IMG/VR virus record: IMGVR_UViG_2802429245_000005
DNA from: a virus
Taxonomy: Duplodnaviria; Heunggongvirae; Uroviricota; Caudoviricetes
Length of the DNA: 41,556 nt
Reading direction: 5' to 3' (one strand)
The position numbers were made by a program, and so were the translations under genes. Below the pieces are notes generated by a model. That model was given only the letters and a program-made list of their open reading frames with translations, searched no databases and had not been told where the DNA came from. Shown here piece after piece: positions 3,685 through 41,556 of this stretch (positions are counted from its first letter, which is position 1; every line of letters begins with the position of its first letter).

Positions 3685-6426
3685 TTACACAGCACAAATC
3701 CTGATCGTTGCTGTGATATCAGTTTCAGTGCCATTATTGAGATATAACCTACCGCCTACAATTGACATCCCAATTTTGGTAGAAACTTCTTCATCTGCAG
3801 ATGTCACCACCACGTTTGTTTTATTGTAATTACCAAGCGGAGATTCATCAGTCGAATGCCCTGGCCTCAATATCATTCCTACACCTGCAAAGAAATTAGG
3901 GTTCCCATTATTTATAACATCCACACAATAAGATAATGCGCTTTTACTAAGTGGGATGGATTGACTTGTATGTGCCTTAACCCACATTTCCCATACGTAT
4001 TCACTTTTACGTATCGCCCCCTCACATGAACCAGATGCATGGAATAACTTTCCTGATGATACAGTGTTATTGGTGCCAACAAGAATCATCTGATTTCCAC
4101 CACCAAAGCCAAAGTTATCACCAAGAGATGGTCCACCATTAATCCTTAACATATATGCATCAGTACTGCCTGATGAGGCGTCAGAGTTATCTATATATAC
4201 AGTGCAATCACTTATAAGAACGCCATCAATCTTATCTGGCGCAACAGTATTAGTTTGGACAACGACGAACTCTCTGGTGGTAGATTTTGCCGAACAACCT
4301 TTAATAATTGTTGGTGTTTCAAGAGTATATGTTTGAGTAATAAAAATGAAATTACTAGGACGAAGCTTCCGATTAACAGCATTTGTTGCTTTCCACCATT
4401 TATTGCTTGATTCGGTTGTTTCGCTAAAGCCATCAATATAGTGAGTATCGGTAATAGTAATTCCGCTACCATAATACAAACGAATCGGAAGGTTGCTAAA
4501 TCCTCTAATCTCGCAACCAGATACTATCTCATTAAAACCACGTATAGTTGCGCCATAAAAACAGTCAACTGCCACATTGTCTTTATATTTAGACTCTGCG
4601 GCACCACCATGACTACCAAACCCATAGGAAAATTCAGTCCATCCTTCCGATGGAAATATAATCCCACCAGTATAACCAGTTCCGCCACCACGCATTGTAA
4701 TGTTGGTTACATTATTGTAGAGAGAACTCCAGTTACTCCCTCCAATATCAACACCACGCCTACAACAAGATGCATTGATATTGTCCACAGTGCAGTAACT
4801 GCTATTGGAAACAGAAACAGCATTACCTGTACCACCATCACCATTGAAAACTCTATTGATTCCATACAGAGATGTATCACGAACAGTGCATCTTAAGCAG
4901 CCTAACAAGGTAATCCCAGCATTCGGGAAATTTTCCACACTAGCGAAACTGGCAATACCGTTTACGCAATATTCGAAGACAACCCCATCATAAGCTTTTT
5001 GTCCGCTAGTTGCATTGGTAACTAACCCGTGTATCGTCCCAACATGAAAATCTCCAGAAATATTAAATGTAGCAGGATAGACAGCCCAGGCCTCAGCTTG
5101 CCTAACCAAACGAAATGTATCTCCTGCAGCAGGTTTATTTGGGAATCCAGTGTCAGCATTACTACCAATAGTAAATGTTTTTGTGTCATCATCATATGCT
5201 GTAACCATTTTGGTTATACCAGCATTATCTCCCGTTAATCCAAGAATTTTATAGAGTGCATCACGAGGTGGTGATGTCACTGAGAAATTTGTAGATGTAA
5301 ATGATTGCCCACTAGATGCGCCAGTAACTGTAACTGTAATATTCCCTCCTGAACGGTAGTAATAATATGCATCCTGATCTAATGTCACATTATTTCCACT
5401 AAGTGAAACGACTTCAACAATTTGCCCTTCCTGCCAACTTCCTCGGTTATCTCCACGAACAAGGTGGTTATTACGAATAACAAGCAAATCTCCGACAGAA
5501 ATATCAGACACATCATCAAGAGTCACAGTCTTTTCGCCCAATGATATATCTCTCGTTATGAAATTATGCAATTTAGTACTTGCAATTCCACCAAGCTTTA
5601 TTGCTGAACCTTCATATCCTACAACATTATTTGTGCAGAGCAATTCAACCTTTCCTGATGCCACCCAATCGAAGCAACCATATGGAATGGAAATATCTAT
5701 TTGTGAAAACAGGTACTTTCCTGCTGTCCATTCCAAACGCTTTCCGTTAGATGCGCAGTAAATGATGGCATTTGTTATTGCGTCTGTATCGTCAGTAATG
5801 CCATCCCCTTTTGCACCAAAATCGCGAACATTGACGATATCCCGCATCTTATCCTGGAACGTTCTGTATACTGCTCCAGAACCATACTGAATAAACAAAC
5901 CAAAACCACCAACAACTCCGGCGATTGCAGCATCGACATAATTACGCATTGAGCGATTATTTACAGCATCCTGCTCAAGTGATGGATCTGCAAGGTTAGA
6001 AATTCTGTTTTGTTTTGCATCGTAATATTTTGCAAGCAGAGAGGGCTTCATCAATGCACGTCTGAACCACCCAAAACATTGCTGGATCAGCATCGTCAGA
6101 TAGTCAAAGGCATCCTCATGCACTTCGGGGAAAAATTTTCCCTGATTGCGAAGGTCTGTCTCCTGCACTACATCAAGCACACGATCTATCGTAATTCGCC
6201 ATCCAGCAGCAAGCGGAGACGGAAGAACCACAGAACCGCCACTATAAGTGCCCGCCCCAGTTACCGTATAACCGGTATCCAGAACCAATTCTGTTACGTT
6301 CCCGTTCAGGTCAGACACCTGAACAACCAGGTCTGATTTTCTGAAAATTCGAAAAGTATACGGAAACGATGTCGTAACGCCGTTACCTGTGTATTCGTTG
6401 TGGTCAACTTCGGTTGAGACCGTCAT
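3685..6426 (-). CDS. Tailspike with N-terminal virion-attachment domain and pectate-lyase-like beta-helix receptor-binding/depolymerase domain
   Basis: 913 aa. RBS GGAG 9 nt upstream of ATG (6424-6426). VRDFGAKGDGITDDTDAI motif typical of right-handed beta-helix glycanases. Downstream two-thirds is AT-rich by eye. Confidence 0.85.
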   Translation of the reverse strand: MTVSTEVDHNEYTGNGVTTSFPYTFRIFRKSDLVVQVSDLNGNVTELVLDTGYTVTGAGTYSGGSVVLPSPLAAGWRITIDRVLDVVQETDLRNQGKFFPEVHEDAFDYLTMLIQQCFGWFRRALMKPSLLAKYYDAKQNRISNLADPSLEQDAVNNRSMRNYVDAAIAGVVGGFGLFIQYGSGAVYRTFQDKMRDIVNVRDFGAKGDGITDDTDAITNAIIYCASNGKRLEWTAGKYLFSQIDISIPYGCFDWVASGKVELLCTNNVVGYEGSAIKLGGIASTKLHNFITRDISLGEKTVTLDDVSDISVGDLLVIRNNHLVRGDNRGSWQEGQIVEVVSLSGNNVTLDQDAYYYYRSGGNITVTVTGASSGQSFTSTNFSVTSPPRDALYKILGLTGDNAGITKMVTAYDDDTKTFTIGSNADTGFPNKPAAGDTFRLVRQAEAWAVYPATFNISGDFHVGTIHGLVTNATSGQKAYDGVVFEYCVNGIASFASVENFPNAGITLLGCLRCTVRDTSLYGINRVFNGDGGTGNAVSVSNSSYCTVDNINASCCRRGVDIGGSNWSSLYNNVTNITMRGGGTGYTGGIIFPSEGWTEFSYGFGSHGGAAESKYKDNVAVDCFYGATIRGFNEIVSGCEIRGFSNLPIRLYYGSGITITDTHYIDGFSETTESSNKWWKATNAVNRKLRPSNFIFITQTYTLETPTIIKGCSAKSTTREFVVVQTNTVAPDKIDGVLISDCTVYIDNSDASSGSTDAYMLRINGGPSLGDNFGFGGGNQMILVGTNNTVSSGKLFHASGSCEGAIRKSEYVWEMWVKAHTSQSIPLSKSALSYCVDVINNGNPNFFAGVGMILRPGHSTDESPLGNYNKTNVVVTSADEEVSTKIGMSIVGGRLYLNNGTETDITATIRICAV

Positions 6427-6530
6427 GTTAAATCTCCAGATAGTCGCAGCACCCGTTGCGCCGCATATCTGGTTATTCTATTACCTGAAAAACCACATAT
6501 GGATAGAAAGACTGTAAATACGAATAGATA

Positions 6531-6545
6531 TTACCTTTCAGGTAA
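6531..6545. promoter_or_regulatory. Palindromic operator-like site TTACCTTTCAGGTAA
   Basis: Exact TTACC-N5-GGTAA between the divergent tailspike (start 6426) and gene 6622. Confidence 0.6.
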
Positions 6546-6621
6546 TTTGCAAAACGTGCTGGATAGCAAACAAATTATTTGCTACTGTATAAATATACAG
6601 TTATTGCATGGAGAAGATAAG

Positions 6622-6879
6622 ATGCAGCAGTATCACTATCCACTGGAAGACGGATTTACCGAAAGGATTCACACGCCGGGAGGCGTCAGATCACTGGTGG
6701 AGGGATCGCACTTGATGAAATTACTCCGGGATCTCGATAAGGATGGATTTAATGTCGATGGCCCACTTGCCGAACTGACTGCACTGATTAACTACGTCAC
6801 CAGCTCACAGATGTCTATGCAGGATCTGCAAACACATCTCGACTATTGTGCCGAACAATTACGAAAACAAACCCGGTAA
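6622..6879 (+). CDS. Small protein homologous to the C-terminal domain of the BRO-N antirepressor at 8028-8723
   Basis: ATG at 6622 with GGAGAAG upstream. Aligns with the antirepressor C-terminus (LMKLLRDLDKDGFNVDGPLAELT...DLQTHLDY versus LMNLLNQLQEDGHDVSGAAAELT...DIQTHAEY). Confidence 0.55.
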   Translation: MQQYHYPLEDGFTERIHTPGGVRSLVEGSHLMKLLRDLDKDGFNVDGPLAELTALINYVTSSQMSMQDLQTHLDYCAEQLRKQTR

Positions 6880-6886
6880 ATTTAAA

Positions 6887-6902
6887 GGCCGCAAGAGCGG
6901 CC
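6887..6902. terminator. Hairpin between convergent genes 6622-6879 and 6902-7630 (possible bidirectional terminator)
   Basis: GGCCGC-AAGA-GCGGCC with T-rich flanks on both strands. Confidence 0.4.
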
Positions 6903-7630
6903 TATCGTTTCGCTTTGTGCTCGTCCCAGCACGTTTTGCACCATGCCATTAAGCCGTCCGCATTTTGATTATTAGGGTAAAAGCTGGTTCGTTTTCTGCG
7001 GACATTACAAATTGGGCACCACTTCATATGACGTGTATTCTTTGGGCCATCGAGACACCTTGCACACCACTTAGTCAATCCATCTGGATTTTTTGACGAT
7101 TTCCTGAATTTTTCATATGGAAGGTTTATTCTGCATCGCAAGCACTGCTTGCTACCGCTTGAAACTCTGTTAGCTGATTCTTCTTTTGGCGGCGATACAG
7201 AAGATATTCTTGCTGGCTCTGATACTGCCTGAGGTGCTTTTTTAAATGACTGAGACGATATGTCATCACCAGGGAATCTTCCATGATATGCCGGACGCGT
7301 TGACACTCCAGGTGGAAGCTCAGCTGTAAACGGCTTTGGCTGAATCAGTTGCCTCTCTTTTGCTAACTCCTGCTGTTTATAATATGTCTGGATTACCGCA
7401 CTATCATAAGCAGGAGGTGCGGAAATATTAGGCGCATTACCTCCAGTTTTTTGAAACTGAGTAGAGGTGTGTTCTATCACCTGTGTACGATTAATCGTTA
7501 TCTCCCCATCTTCGGTCTTTATCGTTTTGTTATGATTAACGACCGTACGATCAGAGATCTTAGTCTTGTTCTGGTTGATAACGTAAATAATCACCGTAAC
7601 CACACCAACAACTATCCAGAAAACTTCCAT
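6902..7630 (-). CDS. Membrane-anchored protein with two tandem CxxC...WCxxC zinc-ribbon-like repeats
   Basis: RBS GAGGAAAAG before ATG (7628-7630). N-terminal TM helix, Pro/Ser-rich linker, repeats CLRCR...DGLTKWCARC and CPICN...DGLMAWCKTC. Operator motif at 7651-7665. Confidence 0.6.
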   Translation of the reverse strand: MEVFWIVVGVVTVIIYVINQNKTKISDRTVVNHNKTIKTEDGEITINRTQVIEHTSTQFQKTGGNAPNISAPPAYDSAVIQTYYKQQELAKERQLIQPKPFTAELPPGVSTRPAYHGRFPGDDISSQSFKKAPQAVSEPARISSVSPPKEESANRVSSGSKQCLRCRINLPYEKFRKSSKNPDGLTKWCARCLDGPKNTRHMKWCPICNVRRKRTSFYPNNQNADGLMAWCKTCWDEHKAKR

Positions 7631-7650
7631 TGCTTTTCCTCACAATAACA

Positions 7651-7665
7651 TTACCTTAAAGGTAA
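7651..7665. promoter_or_regulatory. Palindromic operator-like site TTACCTTAAAGGTAA
   Basis: Exact motif 21 nt upstream of the start of minus-strand gene 6902-7630. Confidence 0.6.
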
Positions 7666-7743
7666 TATCTTGCTTTCAGGTGATCAAGCATTAAACGCAA
7701 CCAACCAAATACGGTTGATTTTAATATTTATTCGCGTTTATCA

Positions 7744-7758
7744 TTACCTTTGCGGTAA
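7744..7758. promoter_or_regulatory. Palindromic operator-like site TTACCTTTGCGGTAA
   Basis: Exact motif at the head of the structured leader upstream of the antirepressor gene. Confidence 0.6.
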
Positions 7759-7792
7759 ATTTACATCGCACTCCTCTTGTGCCATAGTAATC

Positions 7793-7816
7793 GGGCACTG
7801 GCAAAATCCAGTGCCG
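7793..7816 (+). other. Perfect 8-bp stem-loop (GGCACTGG / CCAGTGCC) in the antirepressor leader
   Basis: Read directly; lies between the operator at 7744 and the terminator at 7851. Confidence 0.5.
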
Positions 7817-7850
7817 GGATTGGCGTCCCGGATTACTAAAAGGCGCATTC

Positions 7851-7870
7851 ACCGCGCAAGCGGTTTTTTT
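7851..7870 (+). terminator. Intrinsic terminator-like hairpin plus T7 tract in the antirepressor leader
   Basis: ACCGC-GCAA-GCGGT followed by TTTTTTT. Confidence 0.5.
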
Positions 7871-8027
7871 ATGCGTATAGCACGGCCACATTCGTATTAT
7901 GGTGGGCTGTGTGGGGGCACCGAAAGGTGCGCCGGGTCCTTTTAGCCGGTTACGCCAACCCTGCACAGTTCACCACCAACCGATTGGCGTCGGTAGTGGT
8001 GATTAACCAGACTAAAAGGTAACCACT

Positions 8028-8723
8028 ATGACAGCTACAAAAAGCACGTCCATTTTTTCTTTCGAATCCCAAGCCGATATACGGGTAATCGTCATTAATG
8101 GTGAGCCATGGTTTATCGCTTCAGATGTTTGTCGGGCTATAGGCATAGCAAACCATCGAGATGCTGTTCGAAAACTTGATGATGATGAGAAGGGCGTCGC
8201 TTCAACCGACACCCCTGGCGGTGAGCAAGAATCGATCATTATCTCCGAGTCAGGCCTCTACACACTGATCCTCCGCTGCCGCGATGCGGTGACACCAGGC
8301 ACTATCCCCTACCGCTTTCGTAAATGGGTTACAGGTGAGGTTCTTCCTCAGATCCGCCGCACCGGAAGTTACATTAAAAACTCGCTCCCGCAGGAAGAAC
8401 GCATAAAGATGGTTGCCGACCAGGTTGCCAACGCCACGGCGTCAGCAGTAATGCAGGCGATGAAGATAGAGAACAAAACCTACAGCGCCCCGCTGAAGCC
8501 AGGATACCGCAGTCTGATTCACTCGCCGTCTGGTGTTCTCGGCCTGACGGAGAACTCACTGCTGATGAATCTGCTGAACCAGTTACAGGAAGACGGGCAT
8601 GATGTATCGGGCGCGGCGGCGGAGCTGACCACCATGTTCTGCTACATCGTCGGTGTGAGTAAATGCCTGCGTGATATCCAGACGCATGCGGAGTACATCA
8701 ACGACAAGGCTGGGTTCTTCTGA
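8028..8723 (+). CDS. Antirepressor, BRO-N (Ant-type) N-terminal domain plus C-terminal domain
   Basis: N-terminus FSFESQADIRVIVINGEPWFIASDVCRAIGIANHRDAVRKLDDDEKG matches the Bro-N fold signature. RBS AAGG before ATG at 8028. Confidence 0.8.
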   Translation: MTATKSTSIFSFESQADIRVIVINGEPWFIASDVCRAIGIANHRDAVRKLDDDEKGVASTDTPGGEQESIIISESGLYTLILRCRDAVTPGTIPYRFRKWVTGEVLPQIRRTGSYIKNSLPQEERIKMVADQVANATASAVMQAMKIENKTYSAPLKPGYRSLIHSPSGVLGLTENSLLMNLLNQLQEDGHDVSGAAAELTTMFCYIVGVSKCLRDIQTHAEYINDKAGFF

Positions 8724-8789: not shown

Positions 8790-8804
8790 TTACCTTAAAG
8801 GTAA
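8790..8804. promoter_or_regulatory. Palindromic operator-like site TTACCTTAAAGGTAA
   Basis: Exact motif immediately after a -10-like TAATAT (8785-8790) and 27 nt before ATG 8831. Confidence 0.6.
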
Positions 8805-8830: not shown

Positions 8831-9040
8831 ATGGGATTTTGGTTCGCTCGTACAAAAACGAGGGATAATGCACCCAGCCCTCAGGCAAAAAATGCAGAAG
8901 TTCCGGCGTCAGCGCAGGTTAACAAGCGTGGTGGAGTATATATCTCATCACAGCAAATTTCTGAGCTTCCTGAGGTTAAGGAGATGCGTCGTCTCGCTGC
9001 TGCAATTGTTAAACAGGATCTTGCCACTGTAAGGAAGTAG
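8831..9040 (+). CDS. Small hydrophilic protein, first gene of an operator-controlled accessory cassette
   Basis: Strong RBS GAGGAGGAG before ATG at 8831. Operator motif at 8790-8804. Stop TAG overlaps the GTG of the next ORF. Confidence 0.55.
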   Translation: MGFWFARTKTRDNAPSPQAKNAEVPASAQVNKRGGVYISSQQISELPEVKEMRRLAAAIVKQDLATVRK

Positions 9041-9906
9041 TGTTGCTAGCTCTTCTAATTATCCCAATCCTGGTTAGCGGTTATATTATGATAACCGCTA
9101 ACCAGTATCATTATTTCCGTTTATACCGACACGAAGGCCAGCTTCTTTATATGAAAGTAGCGGCACTAGGTACATATTGCCTTGTTGCATCAGTAATAAT
9201 TGCAGCCGCTATAAAATATAAATGGCCTGATTTTCACCTAGTTCACGATATGGTGGAAACTTTTAATGTAACATCAAAACCAGAAACAGATAGAATTTAC
9301 ATGTGGCTGCTTCTTCTCTCAGCCACATCCATTTGCTTCTCTTTGTGTTATGTGTCTGTTGTGTGGGTGAAAGATTTTCTTCTTGGTTGTTTTTATAAAC
9401 GTGATATTTACGAGCAAAAAACAGAGGCAATGAAGGCCAGAGTACTGCGAAAAACTTACTCGCAGGGTTCTTTAGACTTACTATTGCTTGATGCTATTGA
9501 ATCGGATCCTAAACGACCAATGCTGATTACTTTATCATCAAACAAAGTGTATGTTGGAATAATAAATGGTTCTGGTGAACCAACGGAAAATCAGGGTCCG
9601 CATCAGCACATATCTTTTGTTCCTTTAATGTCAGGATACAGGAACAAAGAAAACTTATCTGTCACATTCACTAATGCTTATCCAGGAGAAATACAGGTCA
9701 AGCGGACTGCAGCAATAAGAGGAATTAGCAGAAAGAAAGTGCCAGGACTTGAGATCATGGTGTCTATTGACGAAATAAGTTATATATCATGGTTTGATTT
9801 TGAAGTATATAAAGCAACAAATAACAAAGTAGAATCCAGGGGGCACGTTATTCGTGTTACCAAAAATGGAAGAAATATATATCAAAGAAATAGCAAAAAA
9901 GAATAG
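9040..9906 (+). CDS. AT-rich integral membrane protein (three N-terminal TM helices plus soluble C-terminal domain); accessory gene
   Basis: 288 aa ORF. GTG at 9040 is coupled to the upstream stop; alternative ATG at 9088 lies in the loop of an 11-bp inverted repeat. AT-rich by eye. Intrinsic terminator directly after the stop. Confidence 0.6.
   Translation: MLLALLIIPILVSGYIMITANQYHYFRLYRHEGQLLYMKVAALGTYCLVASVIIAAAIKYKWPDFHLVHDMVETFNVTSKPETDRIYMWLLLLSATSICFSLCYVSVVWVKDFLLGCFYKRDIYEQKTEAMKARVLRKTYSQGSLDLLLLDAIESDPKRPMLITLSSNKVYVGIINGSGEPTENQGPHQHISFVPLMSGYRNKENLSVTFTNAYPGEIQVKRTAAIRGISRKKVPGLEIMVSIDEISYISWFDFEVYKATNNKVESRGHVIRVTKNGRNIYQRNSKKE
9074..9101 (+). other. 11-bp perfect inverted repeat around a candidate start codon
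   Basis: TTAGCGGTTAT-ATTATG-ATAACCGCTAA; the ATG at 9088-9090 is in the loop. Confidence 0.5.
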
Positions 9907-9998: not shown

Positions 9999-10160
9999 AT
10001 GAAAAAAGCATTTGCTGCACTGTTCGTTTTGTTGTCTCTGGTAGCTTCAACTCAGGCCTTTGCCGGTCGTTGTCAGCACGACAGCGATACTGCTGCTGAC
10101 GGCTCCCGCTGCGGTGGGCGTTCTGCGGATTCCCGCCCGGGCGGCGGTGGCATCCGTTAA
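9999..10160 (+). CDS. Small secreted Cys-containing peptide (signal peptide plus about 31-aa mature part)
   Basis: Internal ATG at 9999 gives MKKAFAALFVLLSLVASTQAFA followed by GRCQHDSDTAADGSRCGGRSADSRPGGGGIR. RBS is weak. Confidence 0.35.
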   Translation: MKKAFAALFVLLSLVASTQAFAGRCQHDSDTAADGSRCGGRSADSRPGGGGIR

Positions 10161-10189
10161 AAACAAGGCCGCGAAAGCGTCCTGTTTGA

Positions 10190-11041
10190 TCACTGTGCAG
10201 TTTTCGCTGATCGATTTTCAGCTCTAAATTCAAGAACCGTTTCAATATTTCTTTCCTTCAGCATATCAATAACATTTTTATTCATTTGACTATCACTGGT
10301 TAATAACTGGTAAACGTTGCTTCTCTCTTTATCAGAGTTTTCTTTAACAGCTGCTTTGCATGCCAAATGCTTATTGAAATTTTCTACATCGCTAGTACAG
10401 GAATTTACGGCTGCTGATGAAATATCAGACGCTGAAGAAACACCATCATCCAAACGTTTTATAGCATTTTCTATACATGAGTTAAGGGAATAAACGACAA
10501 CTGAGCGATACCCTTCAGACGCACACCATTCTAAATTTCTTGAAGGATCGAGTGGTTTTACTTCGCTGGATTGAATTAACTTGTCAAAAACTGACTTATA
10601 TTCAATCTGTTTTTTATCTATAGCCCATACTTCAGTAGCTGATTTATAATTCCCCGTATGCCTATTAACATCAAATCCATGTTTTATAAGCAAATCTGCC
10701 CATGAAAGATTTATTGATTCATTGTTATGAGGCCATTTTCCTGTCAGAACCGCCCCCATAGACCCCATATATCCGCCATATGATGGTATAGCACCATGGC
10801 TCAGTAACTTCTCAGCAACCACAGGGCAATTAATTACATAAGAGGCGTAAAGCCCATTCCATAAAGCCCCTCTATAGTAATCGCCACGATTAGGTTCTTT
10901 TAAGTCGATAGCCTTTGATAATTGTTCACACGTTTTGCATGCATCAAAGTTATCCTTATTGCATTGCAATGAACTGGCAGCTGTAGGATTTACAGAGACT
11001 ATTGAAAGCACTATGCCAAAAAACAAATTTATTTTTTTCAT
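10190..11041 (-). CDS. AT-rich secreted/periplasmic protein of unknown function
   Basis: N-terminal signal peptide MKKINLFFGIVLSIVSVNPTAAS. Start codon sits 1 nt after the stop of the upstream 1129-aa virion protein gene. AT-rich by eye. Confidence 0.6.
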   Translation of the reverse strand: MKKINLFFGIVLSIVSVNPTAASSLQCNKDNFDACKTCEQLSKAIDLKEPNRGDYYRGALWNGLYASYVINCPVVAEKLLSHGAIPSYGGYMGSMGAVLTGKWPHNNESINLSWADLLIKHGFDVNRHTGNYKSATEVWAIDKKQIEYKSVFDKLIQSSEVKPLDPSRNLEWCASEGYRSVVVYSLNSCIENAIKRLDDGVSSASDISSAAVNSCTSDVENFNKHLACKAAVKENSDKERSNVYQLLTSDSQMNKNVIDMLKERNIETVLEFRAENRSAKTAQ

Positions 11042-22466: not shown

Positions 22467-22486
22467 GTGGGTCTGTTACGACCCAC
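22467..22486 (-). other. Stem-loop immediately downstream of the major capsid gene
   Basis: Perfect 7-bp stem GTGGGTC / GACCCAC with no U-tract, between the coat stop and the RBS of the next gene. Confidence 0.45.
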
Positions 22487-26485: not shown

Positions 26486-26500
26486 TTACCTTTCAGGTAA
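26486..26500. promoter_or_regulatory. Palindromic operator-like site TTACCTTTCAGGTAA
   Basis: Exact motif next to TTGACA (26464-26469), upstream of the tRNA region. Confidence 0.6.
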
Positions 26501-26822: not shown

Positions 26823-26899
26823 GTGGCATTAGCTCAGCTGGACAGAGCAACCGCCTTCTAAGCGGTTGGTCGCAGGTTCGAATCCTGCATGCCACGCCA
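26823..26899 (+). tRNA. tRNA-Arg, anticodon UCU (reads AGA), phage-encoded
   Basis: Cloverleaf read directly: acceptor GTGGCAT/ATGCCAC, D-arm GCTC-AGCTGGACA-GAGC, anticodon stem ACCGC/GCGGT with loop CTTCTAA, T-arm GCAGG-TTCGAAT-CCTGC, discriminator G and encoded CCA. Confidence 0.85.
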
Positions 26900-27102: not shown

Positions 27103-27117
27103 TTACCTTGAAGGTAA
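27103..27117. promoter_or_regulatory. Palindromic operator-like site TTACCTTGAAGGTAA
   Basis: Exact motif 33 nt upstream of ATG 27150, downstream of the tRNA terminators. Confidence 0.6.
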
Positions 27118-29839: not shown

Positions 29840-29854
29840 TTACCGTTGTGGTAA
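29840..29854. promoter_or_regulatory. Palindromic operator-like site TTACCGTTGTGGTAA at the late-operon start
   Basis: Exact motif between the minus-strand terminator (29866-29891) and the terminase small subunit start (29822). Nested GGTAA/TTACC half-sites around it (29832-29861). Confidence 0.55.
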
Positions 29855-35357: not shown

Positions 35358-35372
35358 TTACCTTTGAGGTAC
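35358..35372. promoter_or_regulatory. Operator-like site TTACCTTTGAGGTAC (one mismatch)
   Basis: Between the terminator after the cro-like gene and the 70-aa zinc-binding-like gene. Confidence 0.4.
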
Positions 35373-35694: not shown

Positions 35695-35709
35695 TCACCC
35701 ATAAGGTAA
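35695..35709. promoter_or_regulatory. Operator-like site TCACCCATAAGGTAA (one mismatch) in immunity region
   Basis: First of three sites between the divergent cro-like (start 35658) and repressor-like (start 35813) genes. Confidence 0.45.
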
Positions 35710-35725
35710 CAAAAATCAAGGATAG

Positions 35726-35740
35726 TTACCTATGAGGTGC
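35726..35740. promoter_or_regulatory. Operator-like site TTACCTATGAGGTGC (two mismatches) in immunity region
   Basis: Second site; degenerate right half. Confidence 0.35.
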
Positions 35741-35742
35741 AT

Positions 35743-35757
35743 TTACCTGTTGGGTAA
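35743..35757. promoter_or_regulatory. Palindromic operator-like site TTACCTGTTGGGTAA in immunity region
   Basis: Exact motif; third site, nearest the repressor-like gene. Confidence 0.6.
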
Positions 35758-35812: not shown

Positions 35813-36397
35813 ATGAAAAGTATCCAGGACGTCCGCAGGCAAAATCTCAACGACTTGATCGACCGTGAATTCAATGGTGTTCAGACGCGGATGGCAGAAA
35901 AACTTGGAACTCAGGCAAATCTGGTAAACCGCTGGGCTCTTGGCAAGAAGGTTATCGGCGACCAGGTTGCGCGAAAAATTGAAGCTGCCGCCAATAAACC
36001 CCGTAACTGGCTTGATATCGATCGCTCGCTTTCTCAGGAAGGTTTTCAGCCTGTCGGCCCAAGCGACATTGGTCAGCTGGCGGCTCACAACCTGGAACGC
36101 TGGATGAGCGAAAGCCGCGACCTTTCAACACAGGGAAAACTTCACCGCGCATCCGGCGTCGCCCAGGTAACAATCAGCCGCCTGTTAAACAATGAGGTCA
36201 GCGTTTCCATTTCCACCCTGGAGAATGTTGCATCCGCATTCGGGCGTCACGGCTATGAATTACTGATTCACCCGCACGACCCTGCGACCATCAACTATGA
36301 CCGCTCGCGCTACGCATTGTTACCCGAAACCGAGAAAGCAAAGATCGAAAGTTACATTGAATTTGTCATCAACCAGAACGAAAAAAATAAACAATAA
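35813..36397 (+). CDS. Repressor-like protein with two XRE-type HTH domains (candidate lysogeny repressor)
   Basis: 194 aa with two HTH-like segments and no S24 peptidase domain. Monocistronic: strong terminator at 36418-36444. Operator motifs cluster between it and the cro-like gene. Confidence 0.7.
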   Translation: MKSIQDVRRQNLNDLIDREFNGVQTRMAEKLGTQANLVNRWALGKKVIGDQVARKIEAAANKPRNWLDIDRSLSQEGFQPVGPSDIGQLAAHNLERWMSESRDLSTQGKLHRASGVAQVTISRLLNNEVSVSISTLENVASAFGRHGYELLIHPHDPATINYDRSRYALLPETEKAKIESYIEFVINQNEKNKQ

Positions 36398-40305: not shown

Positions 40306-41556
40306 TTATTCTCCCGCCATCCACTTCTCAAACTTCGACGGGGAGAACGGAATCAAATCCGTATGCTCCCCGTTAATCCAGGAATCAATCATATCGGCCC
40401 ACTGCTGCAACATGTAGGCGCGCTGTCTGGCGTATTCCGCTTTGTTATATACGGCGCGCACACTTTTCTGCTCATGTGCCAGGGCCTTTTCAATCCAGTC
40501 TGAAGGATAACCAGCCTCATGCAACAACGTACTGGCTGTACGGCGCATATCGTGTACGGTGAAGTCCTGAATATGCTCACCATCTTCATTTATTATTTTC
40601 ACCGTTCTGTCGATCAGAGAGTTCAGCGCGGCATTAGATAATGGCTTCCGGAAGTTGTAACGACCAGGAACCAGATATTCACTTCCACCAGCGCACATCT
40701 GCAACCCGACCAATATATCCTGTGCCTGTTTAGGCAGGTAAATAACGTGCGCCCGGCTTCCCTTCATGCGGTCTGAAGGAATTGTCCATGTCCATTTTTT
40801 AAAATCTATTTCATCCCACGTTGCATTGGTGAATTCGCCTTTACGAACCATGGTGATAAGCACCAGCTTTAAAGCCATTTTCATAGTGCCCATAGCACCA
40901 ATGGCATCCAGCGTGCGGAAGAACAGGCCAACTTCTTCTGGTGTCAGTGTTCGCTCTCGTGGTTTAAATATGGCGATAGACGAAGGTTTAATGTCAGCCG
41001 CAGGATTAAACAAACCATGACCACGGTCATTGGCGTGACGGTATACGCTGCTGATGATCTCCCTGGCCTGCACTGCTGTTGCCCGGCCACCGCGTTCGAC
41101 AATCCGGTCACACAAATCACGAACCATCGATGTGGTAATTTCAGCCATCATTTTGTTGCCAAGAACCGGAAGTATGTCACGGTCGATCACTGCCTTCTTC
41201 ATTGCGCGGGTACTTTCAGCAAGGATGACGTGTTTCATATAACTGTCGGTATGTACCGTAAACGTCTCGGCACCACGAATCTTTTTGATACCGTCACGTT
41301 TAGCCGCAGCCGGTGACTGGCCTGCTTTAAGCAGCTTTTTTGCAGCAATCAGTTCTTCCCGCGCTTCTGCCAGGCTGATACCGTCACGCCCATACTGCCC
41401 GATTACCAGTGTTTCGCGGCGACCGTTGATACGGTAGTCATAGCGAAATGAGACCGTACCTGACGTAAGCACAGCTACATACAGCCCGTCACGATCGGAG
41501 ACTTTGTACAGTTTGTCCTGCGGCTTGAGGTTTTTTAATTTTGTATCGGTAAGCAC
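40306..41556 (-). CDS. int: Tyrosine integrase (P4-like family); 5' end at or beyond the window edge
   Basis: N-terminus (M)LTDTKLKNLKPQDKLYKVSDRDGLYVAV matches the P4-type integrase N-terminal domain. C-terminal catalytic region with HDMRRT and Y. ORF runs to the last base; the first codon in the window is GTG. Confidence 0.85.
   Translation of the reverse strand: MLTDTKLKNLKPQDKLYKVSDRDGLYVAVLTSGTVSFRYDYRINGRRETLVIGQYGRDGISLAEAREELIAAKKLLKAGQSPAAAKRDGIKKIRGAETFTVHTDSYMKHVILAESTRAMKKAVIDRDILPVLGNKMMAEITTSMVRDLCDRIVERGGRATAVQAREIISSVYRHANDRGHGLFNPAADIKPSSIAIFKPRERTLTPEEVGLFFRTLDAIGAMGTMKMALKLVLITMVRKGEFTNATWDEIDFKKWTWTIPSDRMKGSRAHVIYLPKQAQDILVGLQMCAGGSEYLVPGRYNFRKPLSNAALNSLIDRTVKIINEDGEHIQDFTVHDMRRTASTLLHEAGYPSDWIEKALAHEQKSVRAVYNKAEYARQRAYMLQQWADMIDSWINGEHTDLIPFSPSKFEKWMAGE

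Follow-up and report, generated by a model that had tools for sequence, protein, structure and literature searches.

We describe two antirepressor genes in the IMG/VR virus record IMGVR_UViG_2802429245_000005 (41,556 nucleotides [nt]; the whole of this stretch is called the window here), an epsilon15/phiV10-like (Uetakevirus), nearly complete prophage of Escherichia coli of the podovirus type. One gene encodes a protein of 85 amino acids (aa) and the other a 231-aa protein with a BRO-N domain. In the reading we favor, to which we give a probability of about 0.72, the two antirepressors share one module of ~80 aa that binds the phage repressor Rep, one of them being wired to the SOS response and the other being under RNA control like that of the immI locus of phage P1. 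The homologies, LexA box and operators, RNA models, covarying pairings, and gene order on which this reading draws were obtained in the present analysis; the binding of Ant to Rep in Salmonella phage SPC32H and the anti-lysogeny effect of an identical BRO-N protein in Escherichia phage vB_EcoP_ZX5 (ZX5) were taken from the literature.

Both genes, which lie on the plus strand at 6622-6879 (ant, the small gene) and 8028-8723 (the BRO-N gene), are real, and the homology between their products is real. Residues 2-75 of the 85-aa protein aligned with residues 150-223 of the 231-aa protein without gaps (BLASTP; 31/74 identities, 42%; E = 8e-16), with a local-alignment score of 161 compared with 26.5 ± 4.4 in 2000 shuffles (z = 30.9). 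A preliminary description of this DNA had claimed that the small protein resembles the antirepressor C terminus at 35-40% identity by eye; pairwise alignment bears out the resemblance, and the estimate was roughly right, if slightly low. Copies of the module were found in these two places only when the whole window was searched with the small protein (tblastn). Both genes are under purifying selection: the ratio of nonsynonymous to synonymous substitution rates (dN/dS) came to ~0.05 when the small gene was compared with that of SPC32H, and to ~0.21 when the BRO-N gene was compared with its counterpart in a Klebsiella phage.

Judged by its sequence relationships, the small gene (ribosome-binding site [RBS] GGAG at 6610-6613; phrog_450 match) is the ortholog of ant of Salmonella phage SPC32H, the product of which was crystallized with the repressor Rep (PDB 5D50). 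Among solved structures, the small protein matched a single entry, chain E of 5D50, "Anti-repressor protein," along its full length (phmmer E = 4.1e-47, residues 2-84 on 3-85), and identity to the SPC32H ant product (SPC32H_020, 86 aa) was 88% (tblastn). SPC32H ant occupies the same position, beside the tailspike gene and divergent from it, and is the single Ant-domain gene of that phage, which has no BRO-N paralog. SPC32H Ant is described as a tetramer that breaks the Rep tetramer, releasing Rep from DNA (PMC9638917, PMC9986798), and its contact on Rep as the C-terminal tetramerization domain (PMC9986798).

The preliminary description offered two roles for the small protein, a second antirepressor or, as a free C-terminal domain, a decoy or modulator. 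The first is upheld by the orthology with SPC32H Ant and by a LexA-controlled unit of its own. Under the second, a free copy of the larger protein's C-terminal domain would compete for Rep but leave it active, or would enter mixed oligomers with the BRO-N protein and so tune it, in keeping with the homologous module common to both proteins, with the tetrameric state of SPC32H Ant (PMC9638917), which makes mixed assemblies conceivable, and with the two genes being neighbors in many relatives. However, the 88%-identical ortholog breaks the Rep tetramer in a phage that lacks a BRO-N paralog, the small gene forms a LexA-controlled unit of its own with a terminator, and among the three partners small Ant is conserved best, with 84-88% identity in Salmonella phages in which Rep is 42% identical. 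We regard a decoy or modulator as very improbable, and derivation of the small protein as a fragment is not supported for a family whose SPC32H member is an antirepressor without any such paralog. The history appears closer to the reverse, with the standalone form being the characterized family and the BRO-N protein being one of several fusions carrying the module, because SPC32H has the standalone Ant only, the two units are separately controlled (LexA versus the antisense RNA C4), and several types of fusion exist.

A predicted LexA (SOS) box, TACTGTATAAATATACAGTT (6583-6602, plus strand; 18/20 match to the consensus TACTGTATATATATACAGTA), lies upstream of the GGAG RBS of ant; no other CTGT-N8-ACAG site in the window is AT-rich. 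Inside the box is TATAAA (6588-6593), a candidate -10 element; the promoter hexamers are our own assignment. Further CTGT-N8-ACAG sites at 22473 and 27015 were rejected as LexA boxes, having GC-rich spacers and a number within chance. The predicted box aligned column for column with TACTGTATGTTTATACAGTG of SPC32H. Over 1049 bp around ant, the public sequences of SPC32H and SPC32N differed at two positions, one inside the tailspike gene and the other, the sole intergenic difference, a C-to-A change in the CAG half-site of this LexA box. In SPC32H, LexA is reported to repress ant, and a point mutation in the LexA box reportedly gave rise to the constitutively lytic SPC32N; the work on Ant and Rep of SPC32H is that of Kim and Ryu in 2013 and Kim et al. 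in 2016. Klebsiella phages and two metagenomic or genomic loci carried a box at the same position with one half-site degenerate (ATGT...ACAG, 15-17/20).

Upstream of the box, in the region common to ant and the divergent tailspike gene, is a perfect TTACC-N5-GGTAA palindrome, the Rep operator ATTACCTTTCAGGTAAT (6530-6546; core 6531-6545, 77 nt upstream of ant), which is kept at the same position in SPC32H, phiV10, and TL-2011b. Downstream, the terminator scan found a GC-rich hairpin (6886-6903) between the convergent ant (plus strand) and a 242-aa gene (minus strand), probably a bidirectional terminator closing the ant transcription unit. With a LexA box, an operator, and a terminator around it, ant is predicted to be a self-contained, SOS-controlled antirepressor unit. 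A 126-aa reading of the gene from a start at 6499 was rejected; it begins upstream of both the LexA box and the operator, and the 85-aa start has the GGAG and fits the crystallized 86-aa protein. Many database entries nevertheless give the small gene as 126/127 aa from the upstream ATG (protein clusters P0003 and P0031-P0035, one cluster having 833 members), a start that is almost certainly wrong. Apart from chance-level DUF724 and sub-threshold matches, neither the small protein nor the C-terminal module nor the neighboring cargo open reading frames (ORFs) had a hit in Pfam, NCBIfam, or PADLOC.

The presumed target of both antirepressors is the product of rep (194 aa; 35813-36397, plus strand), which matched PDB 5D50 chain A, "Repressor" (E = 4e-42), and 5D4Z_A (E = 4e-20) and was 42% identical to SPC32H Rep. 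An HTH_3 domain is present in it, and an S24 peptidase (self-cleavage) domain was not found. TTACC-N5-GGTAA occurs at 12 sites in the window versus 0 expected (none in 100 shuffles). We take it to be the Rep operator because the sites cluster around rep (35743, 36455, and 36517) and because rep of SPC32H is likewise surrounded by it. Degenerate operator half-matches, for example TTCACCCATAAGGTAA and GTTACCTATGAGGTG, lie beside the perfect site in the intergenic region between rep and a cro-like gene (35697-35757 and 35358-35372); they would fit a tetrameric Rep that binds several operators or loops the DNA. Elsewhere in the window, a tRNA-Arg(TCT) gene (26823-26899) sits between two perfect operators (26486-26500 and 27103-27117), and a further operator is at 29840-29854.

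The 231-aa protein has a BRO-N domain at aa 17-107 (nt 8076-8348; Pfam PF02498, 76.7 bits against a cut-off of 25.6) and an Ant-like C-terminal domain at aa 150-226 (nt 8475-8705). Its C terminus matched 5D50_E (E = 1e-13), and residues 148-229 matched phrog_450 (E = 4.2e-36). The protein is 100% identical to ORF4 of ZX5, in which Rep and the small Ant are also 100% identical to those of the window. When ORF4 was overexpressed, lysogeny was reduced: the prophage titer fell from 1e9 to 1e6, and the level of repressor mRNA dropped by 75% (PMC9782041).

The arrangement in front of the BRO-N gene differs from that in front of ant. The preliminary description had both genes on the plus strand and preceded by the same operator motif; strand and shared motif are correct, but the motif does not stand immediately before the BRO-N gene. 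The Rep operators at 7651-7665 and 7744-7758 are 363 and 270 nt upstream, and the interval is taken up by a promoter and a ~230-nt RNA leader composed of isrK and C4, an element that had been overlooked together with the LexA box at 6583-6602. The second of these operators, TTACCTTTGCGGTAA (7744-7758), abuts the -35 element of the promoter for isrK; phiV10 retains it, the half-sites being intact and the spacer inverted, and equivalent operators stand just upstream of isrK at three other loci (L010, L011, and L013). The promoter scan placed a sigma-70-like promoter (TTTACA, 17 nt, (TG)CATAGT) at 7760-7788 on the plus strand, ending 7 nt before the match to an isrK-type small RNA with its own terminator (7795-7870, plus strand; Rfam RF01394, 77.9 bits, gathering score 50). 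A match to RF03163, c4-a1b1, overlaps it (7782-7834, 45.1 bits). A C4-type antisense RNA follows on the same strand (7895-7980; Rfam RF01695, 77.7 bits, gathering score 45).

C4 has two single-stranded segments, CCUUUUAG (7938-7945) and ACGCCAA (7952-7958), that are exactly complementary to two pairs of sites on the plus strand. One pair lies within isrK (UUGGCGU at 7820-7826 and CUAAAAGG at 7836-7843) and the other downstream of C4 (UUGGCGU at 7984-7990 and CUAAAAGG at 8012-8019), where the copy at 8012-8019 covers the AAAGG RBS of the BRO-N gene, 9 nt before the start codon. The predicted pairings are supported by covariation, with compensatory changes at three loci. In one Klebsiella phage (L006), the first C4 segment is CCUUUGUAG and its target CUACAAAGG, and the second is AGACCAA with the target UUGGUCU; in a Shiga toxin (Stx) phage, phi296 (L008), the first segment is CCUUUUUC and its target GAAAAAGG, the second being unchanged (ACGCCAA with UUGGCGU). 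In these two phages, the target is altered in its isrK copy and its RBS copy alike. In another Klebsiella phage (L005), the first segment CCGUUUAG faces CUAAACGG upstream and CUAAGCGG downstream (one G-U pair), and the second is again unchanged (ACGCCAA with UUGGCGU).

TL-2011b and phiV10 have a nearly identical leader, which is absent from SPC32H. Between the end of C4 (7980) and the ATG at 8028 there is no ORF, so that a leader ORF of the icd or orf45 kind, with translation coupled to that of ant, is not present there. The notion that the isrK-C4 leader is always paired with the Ant module was discarded, as phi296 has the same leader before an unrelated Ant. Several annotations overlap this leader in other phages. 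In ZX5 (L009), a coding sequence (CDS) for an "ash family protein" is annotated in it (1441-1554), and in phi296 a "hypothetical protein" CDS (2532-2699) overlaps the isrK and C4 matches (2495-2569 and 2592-2677); both are probably misannotated RNA genes. At locus L013, the called 319-aa gene for a fusion of Rha with the Ant module (10001-10960) overlaps the isrK and C4 matches (10003-10189), and its real start is probably ~200-230 nt further downstream.

When 1.84 billion representative proteins (50% clustering) were searched exhaustively with a profile, the module was found in only 61 clusters, either as standalone proteins of 82-96 aa or as the C terminus of longer proteins. The fused architectures were seen in this search only; the relatives returned by a word-indexed search, for which the small protein was the query, were all close and standalone. 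N-terminal partners of the module in the longer proteins were AntA, BRO-N, Phage_pRha, and ORF6N. In TL-2011b (L001, 6499-7683), gp42 joins P22_AR_N to a module almost identical to that of the BRO-N protein; it is the third copy of the module in that phage, and its gene adjoins an Arc-like repressor gene and a sar antisense RNA, giving three differently controlled copies in one phage. At loci with visible context, the AntA, ORF6N, and Rha fusions adjoin a small ant and a tail-fiber gene, and each fusion gene is preceded by a Rep-type operator and an isrK-C4 leader.

Within a collection of 50,697 phage records, the small Ant was present in 35, the C-terminal module in 34, and Rep in 37, all from the same set of Uetakevirus-like phages. 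Identities to the window were 98.5-100% for Rep, 98-100% for the small Ant, and 95-100% for the fused module in E. coli phages; 78%, 85.5%, and 77%, respectively, in Enterobacter phage Tyrion; and 45%, 58-63%, and 54% in Klebsiella phages. In Salmonella phages, they were 42% for Rep and 84-88% for the small Ant, the fused module being absent. From this strict co-distribution, which is our main argument, we infer that the module is a Rep-binding element in the fusions also and that the BRO-N protein would bind Rep through its C-terminal module.

If the module were an oligomerization domain only, the BRO-N protein would act through DNA binding by BRO-N or through another partner, and would not bind Rep. 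The tetrameric state of SPC32H Ant (PMC9638917), the five different regulator-type N-terminal domains to which the module is attached, as would suit a generic multimerization tail, and the lack of any matching Pfam or NCBIfam model all accord with such a role. Against this, the module is narrow, with 61 representatives at 50% clustering among 1.84 billion proteins, and in the phage collection it is confined to phages with an SPC32H-type Rep, which would be unexpected of a generic domain; we hold a purely oligomerizing module to be improbable.

A further possibility, unlikely in our judgment, is that the BRO-N fusion is aimed mainly at the Reps of heteroimmune relatives, as cross-talk or anti-immunity at superinfection, and not at its own Rep. 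The fusion module is diverged, sharing 42% identity with the resident small Ant; control of the fusion by C4 resembles that in the immI systems of P1/P7 and P22, whose action comes at superinfection; and the fall of module identity with Rep across groups (100/77/54% versus 100/78/45% for Rep) suggests specificity. But the last of these, a module that tracks its own Rep, also argues for a cognate interaction, and the identical ZX5 protein, when overexpressed, reduced lysogeny of ZX5 itself, in which Rep is 100% identical to that of the window.

The reading of two Rep-directed antirepressors under separate controls has several observations to contend with. For the ant unit, the weak promoter hexamers were missed by the promoter scan of the region, and the operator at 6530-6546 may not repress ant and could serve the divergent tailspike gene, since any plausible -35 element of ant would be ~17 bp downstream of it. 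For the BRO-N protein, the ZX5 experiment used overexpressed ORF4 tagged with glutathione S-transferase and included no binding assay (PMC9782041); AlphaFold2 (15-sequence alignment) gave a low-confidence model (mean predicted local distance difference test score of 47, predicted template modeling score of 0.33); and, module identity to the small Ant being a mere 42%, the shared residues could serve oligomerization rather than contact with Rep, because Ant is a tetramer. In phiV10 (L002, 3793-4472), the BRO-N gene is frameshifted inside the Ant-like module and split into p23 (194 aa) and p22 (29 aa), and the same split occurs in O157 typing phages 9 and 10. The phiV10 split is either a pseudogene or a sequencing error; given the frameshift in the module, the BRO-N unit would be nonessential and dispensable in phiV10.

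In the favored reading, the two units would act on Rep as follows. For unit 1 (6530-6903), LexA in the lysogen would occupy the box overlapping the ant promoter; DNA damage would remove LexA and allow Ant to be made, and Ant would then bind the C-terminal tetramerization domain of Rep and break the tetramer, so that Rep would leave its TTACC-N5-GGTAA operators. Transcription of unit 2 (7744-8723) would run from the promoter flanked by the Rep operator through isrK and C4 into the BRO-N gene. Rep may repress both promoters, and unit 2 would be held off in the lysogen by Rep at its promoter and by C4 at the RBS. Translation of the BRO-N gene would be blocked as long as C4 is present, because one C4 target covers the RBS, as in P1/P7 immI, and isrK would offer decoy copies of both C4 target sites. 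By analogy with the immI regions of P1/P7 and P22, unit 2 would fire at infection or superinfection before C4 accumulates, or once isrK titrates C4, and not in response to DNA damage.

A bolder extension would treat the module as a portable Rep-binding cassette present in 2-3 copies per genome behind LexA/SOS, isrK-C4, and, in TL-2011b, Arc/sar control, with mixed tetramers of the small Ant and the fusions integrating these inputs. Such tetramers are conceivable because Ant works as a tetramer, and if they form, the modulator role of the preliminary description would return as cross-talk and not as a decoy; we consider this extension speculative and quite unlikely.

The closest known system is Ant/Rep of SPC32H (PDB 5D50, 5D4Z). 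The small Ant is 88% identical there (85 versus 86 aa) and its gene has the same position beside the tailspike gene, and the LexA box position, upstream Rep operator, repressor family, and operator consensus ATTACC-N5-GGTAAT agree, whereas Rep is only 42% identical and SPC32H has neither a paralog fusing BRO-N to the Ant module nor an isrK-C4 leader. The immI region of P1 and P7 consists of the antisense RNA gene c4 followed by icd and ant1/ant2, with C4 being processed from the leader of the antirepressor transcript. The window resembles it in having C4 upstream on the same strand, two C4 segments, duplicated targets of which the downstream one lies over an RBS, and an operon promoter adjoining an operator of the main repressor. 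It differs in lacking an icd-like leader ORF, the blocked RBS being that of the antirepressor itself, and in having as antirepressor a BRO-N fusion with an SPC32H-type module; moreover, the short Ant2 of P1 is an internal in-frame product of ant1, whereas the short form in the window is a separate, LexA-controlled gene. The immI region of P22 (mnt-arc-ant with sar RNA) lies beside the tailspike gene. The antirepressor region of the window likewise adjoins the tailspike gene, and TL-2011b has the P22_AR_N fusion to the Ant module, an Arc-like gene, and sar, but the window has no arc, mnt, or sar and its predicted control is by LexA and C4.

The isrK-orf45-anrP region of Gifsy-1 has an isrK RNA with a terminator, read-through of which gives an RNA processed to ~80 nt (STnc1160), and an antirepressor-like gene that is translationally blocked until relieved (PMC4825925). 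An isrK RNA with a terminator at the 5' end of an antirepressor transcript is shared with the window, as are matches to the isrK and C4 models; Gifsy-1 differs in having the leader ORF orf45 and in a downstream effect exerted via the antiterminator AntQ (PMC4825925). Tum of phage 186, GfoA/GfhA of Gifsy prophages (PMC3121763), and AntC of N15 are, like Ant, LexA-repressed small proteins that inactivate a noncleavable repressor, but a sequence relationship between them and the Ant of the window was not detected, and the module family is narrow (61 representatives). In ZX5, where the BRO-N protein, Rep, and small Ant are those of the window, ORF4 was described as the sole antirepressor, and the words SPC32H and LexA do not occur in the paper (PMC9782041); the GenBank record of ZX5 lists the small gene as hypothetical. 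The window further differs from ZX5 by the extra 242-aa gene between the two units.

This 242-aa gene (6902-7630, minus strand; phrog_6762), inserted between the two antirepressor units, is absent from phiV10 also. Its product has a hydrophobic segment at the N terminus and, at the C terminus, zinc-ribbon repeats of the CxxC type that gave weak matches of the Stc1 and endonuclease VII kinds, and the perfect Rep operator at 7651-7665 lies 20 nt upstream of its start, with a degenerate second copy at ~7671-7685. Beyond the BRO-N gene, a 69-aa ORF (8831-9040, plus strand; phrog_5739) closely follows a plausible promoter with which a perfect Rep operator (8790-8804) overlaps; the next ORF, of 288 aa (9040-9906, plus strand; phrog_3630), overlaps the 69-aa one. 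Neither ORF had a Pfam, NCBIfam, or PADLOC match, and the two are apparently cargo genes under Rep control.

The region around the antirepressor genes matched Escherichia phages TL-2011b, ZX5, and phiV10 at 94-98% DNA identity, and some part of it was present in ~1000 of 5426 complete E. coli genomes. Besides virion genes, the window holds an integrase gene (40306-41556), a replication and immunity region (around 33.5-37 kb), and a 913-aa tailspike gene (3685-6426, minus strand), which is divergent from ant and whose region both antirepressor genes adjoin.

Two strands of literature, in which either the small LexA-controlled Ant (SPC32H) or the BRO-N protein (ZX5) figures as the antirepressor of epsilon15-like phages, are linked by these observations. 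The paralogy of two antirepressors through one module, under orthogonal controls, seems not to have been spelled out in the literature consulted. Every component is of a known kind (a characterized Ant, a BRO-N protein tested by overexpression, and RNAs in Rfam), and what is described is domain shuffling and no new mechanism. The small gene, called a "hypothetical protein" in phiV10, TL-2011b, ZX5, and the E. coli genomes examined, should be annotated as the SOS-inducible antirepressor. The family also offers a tidy example of domain shuffling, in which one repressor-binding module is combined with many N-terminal domains and regulatory leaders. Because such prophages occur in enterohemorrhagic and other E. 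coli, knowledge of their SOS and RNA-gated inputs would be useful for predicting induction by antibiotics.

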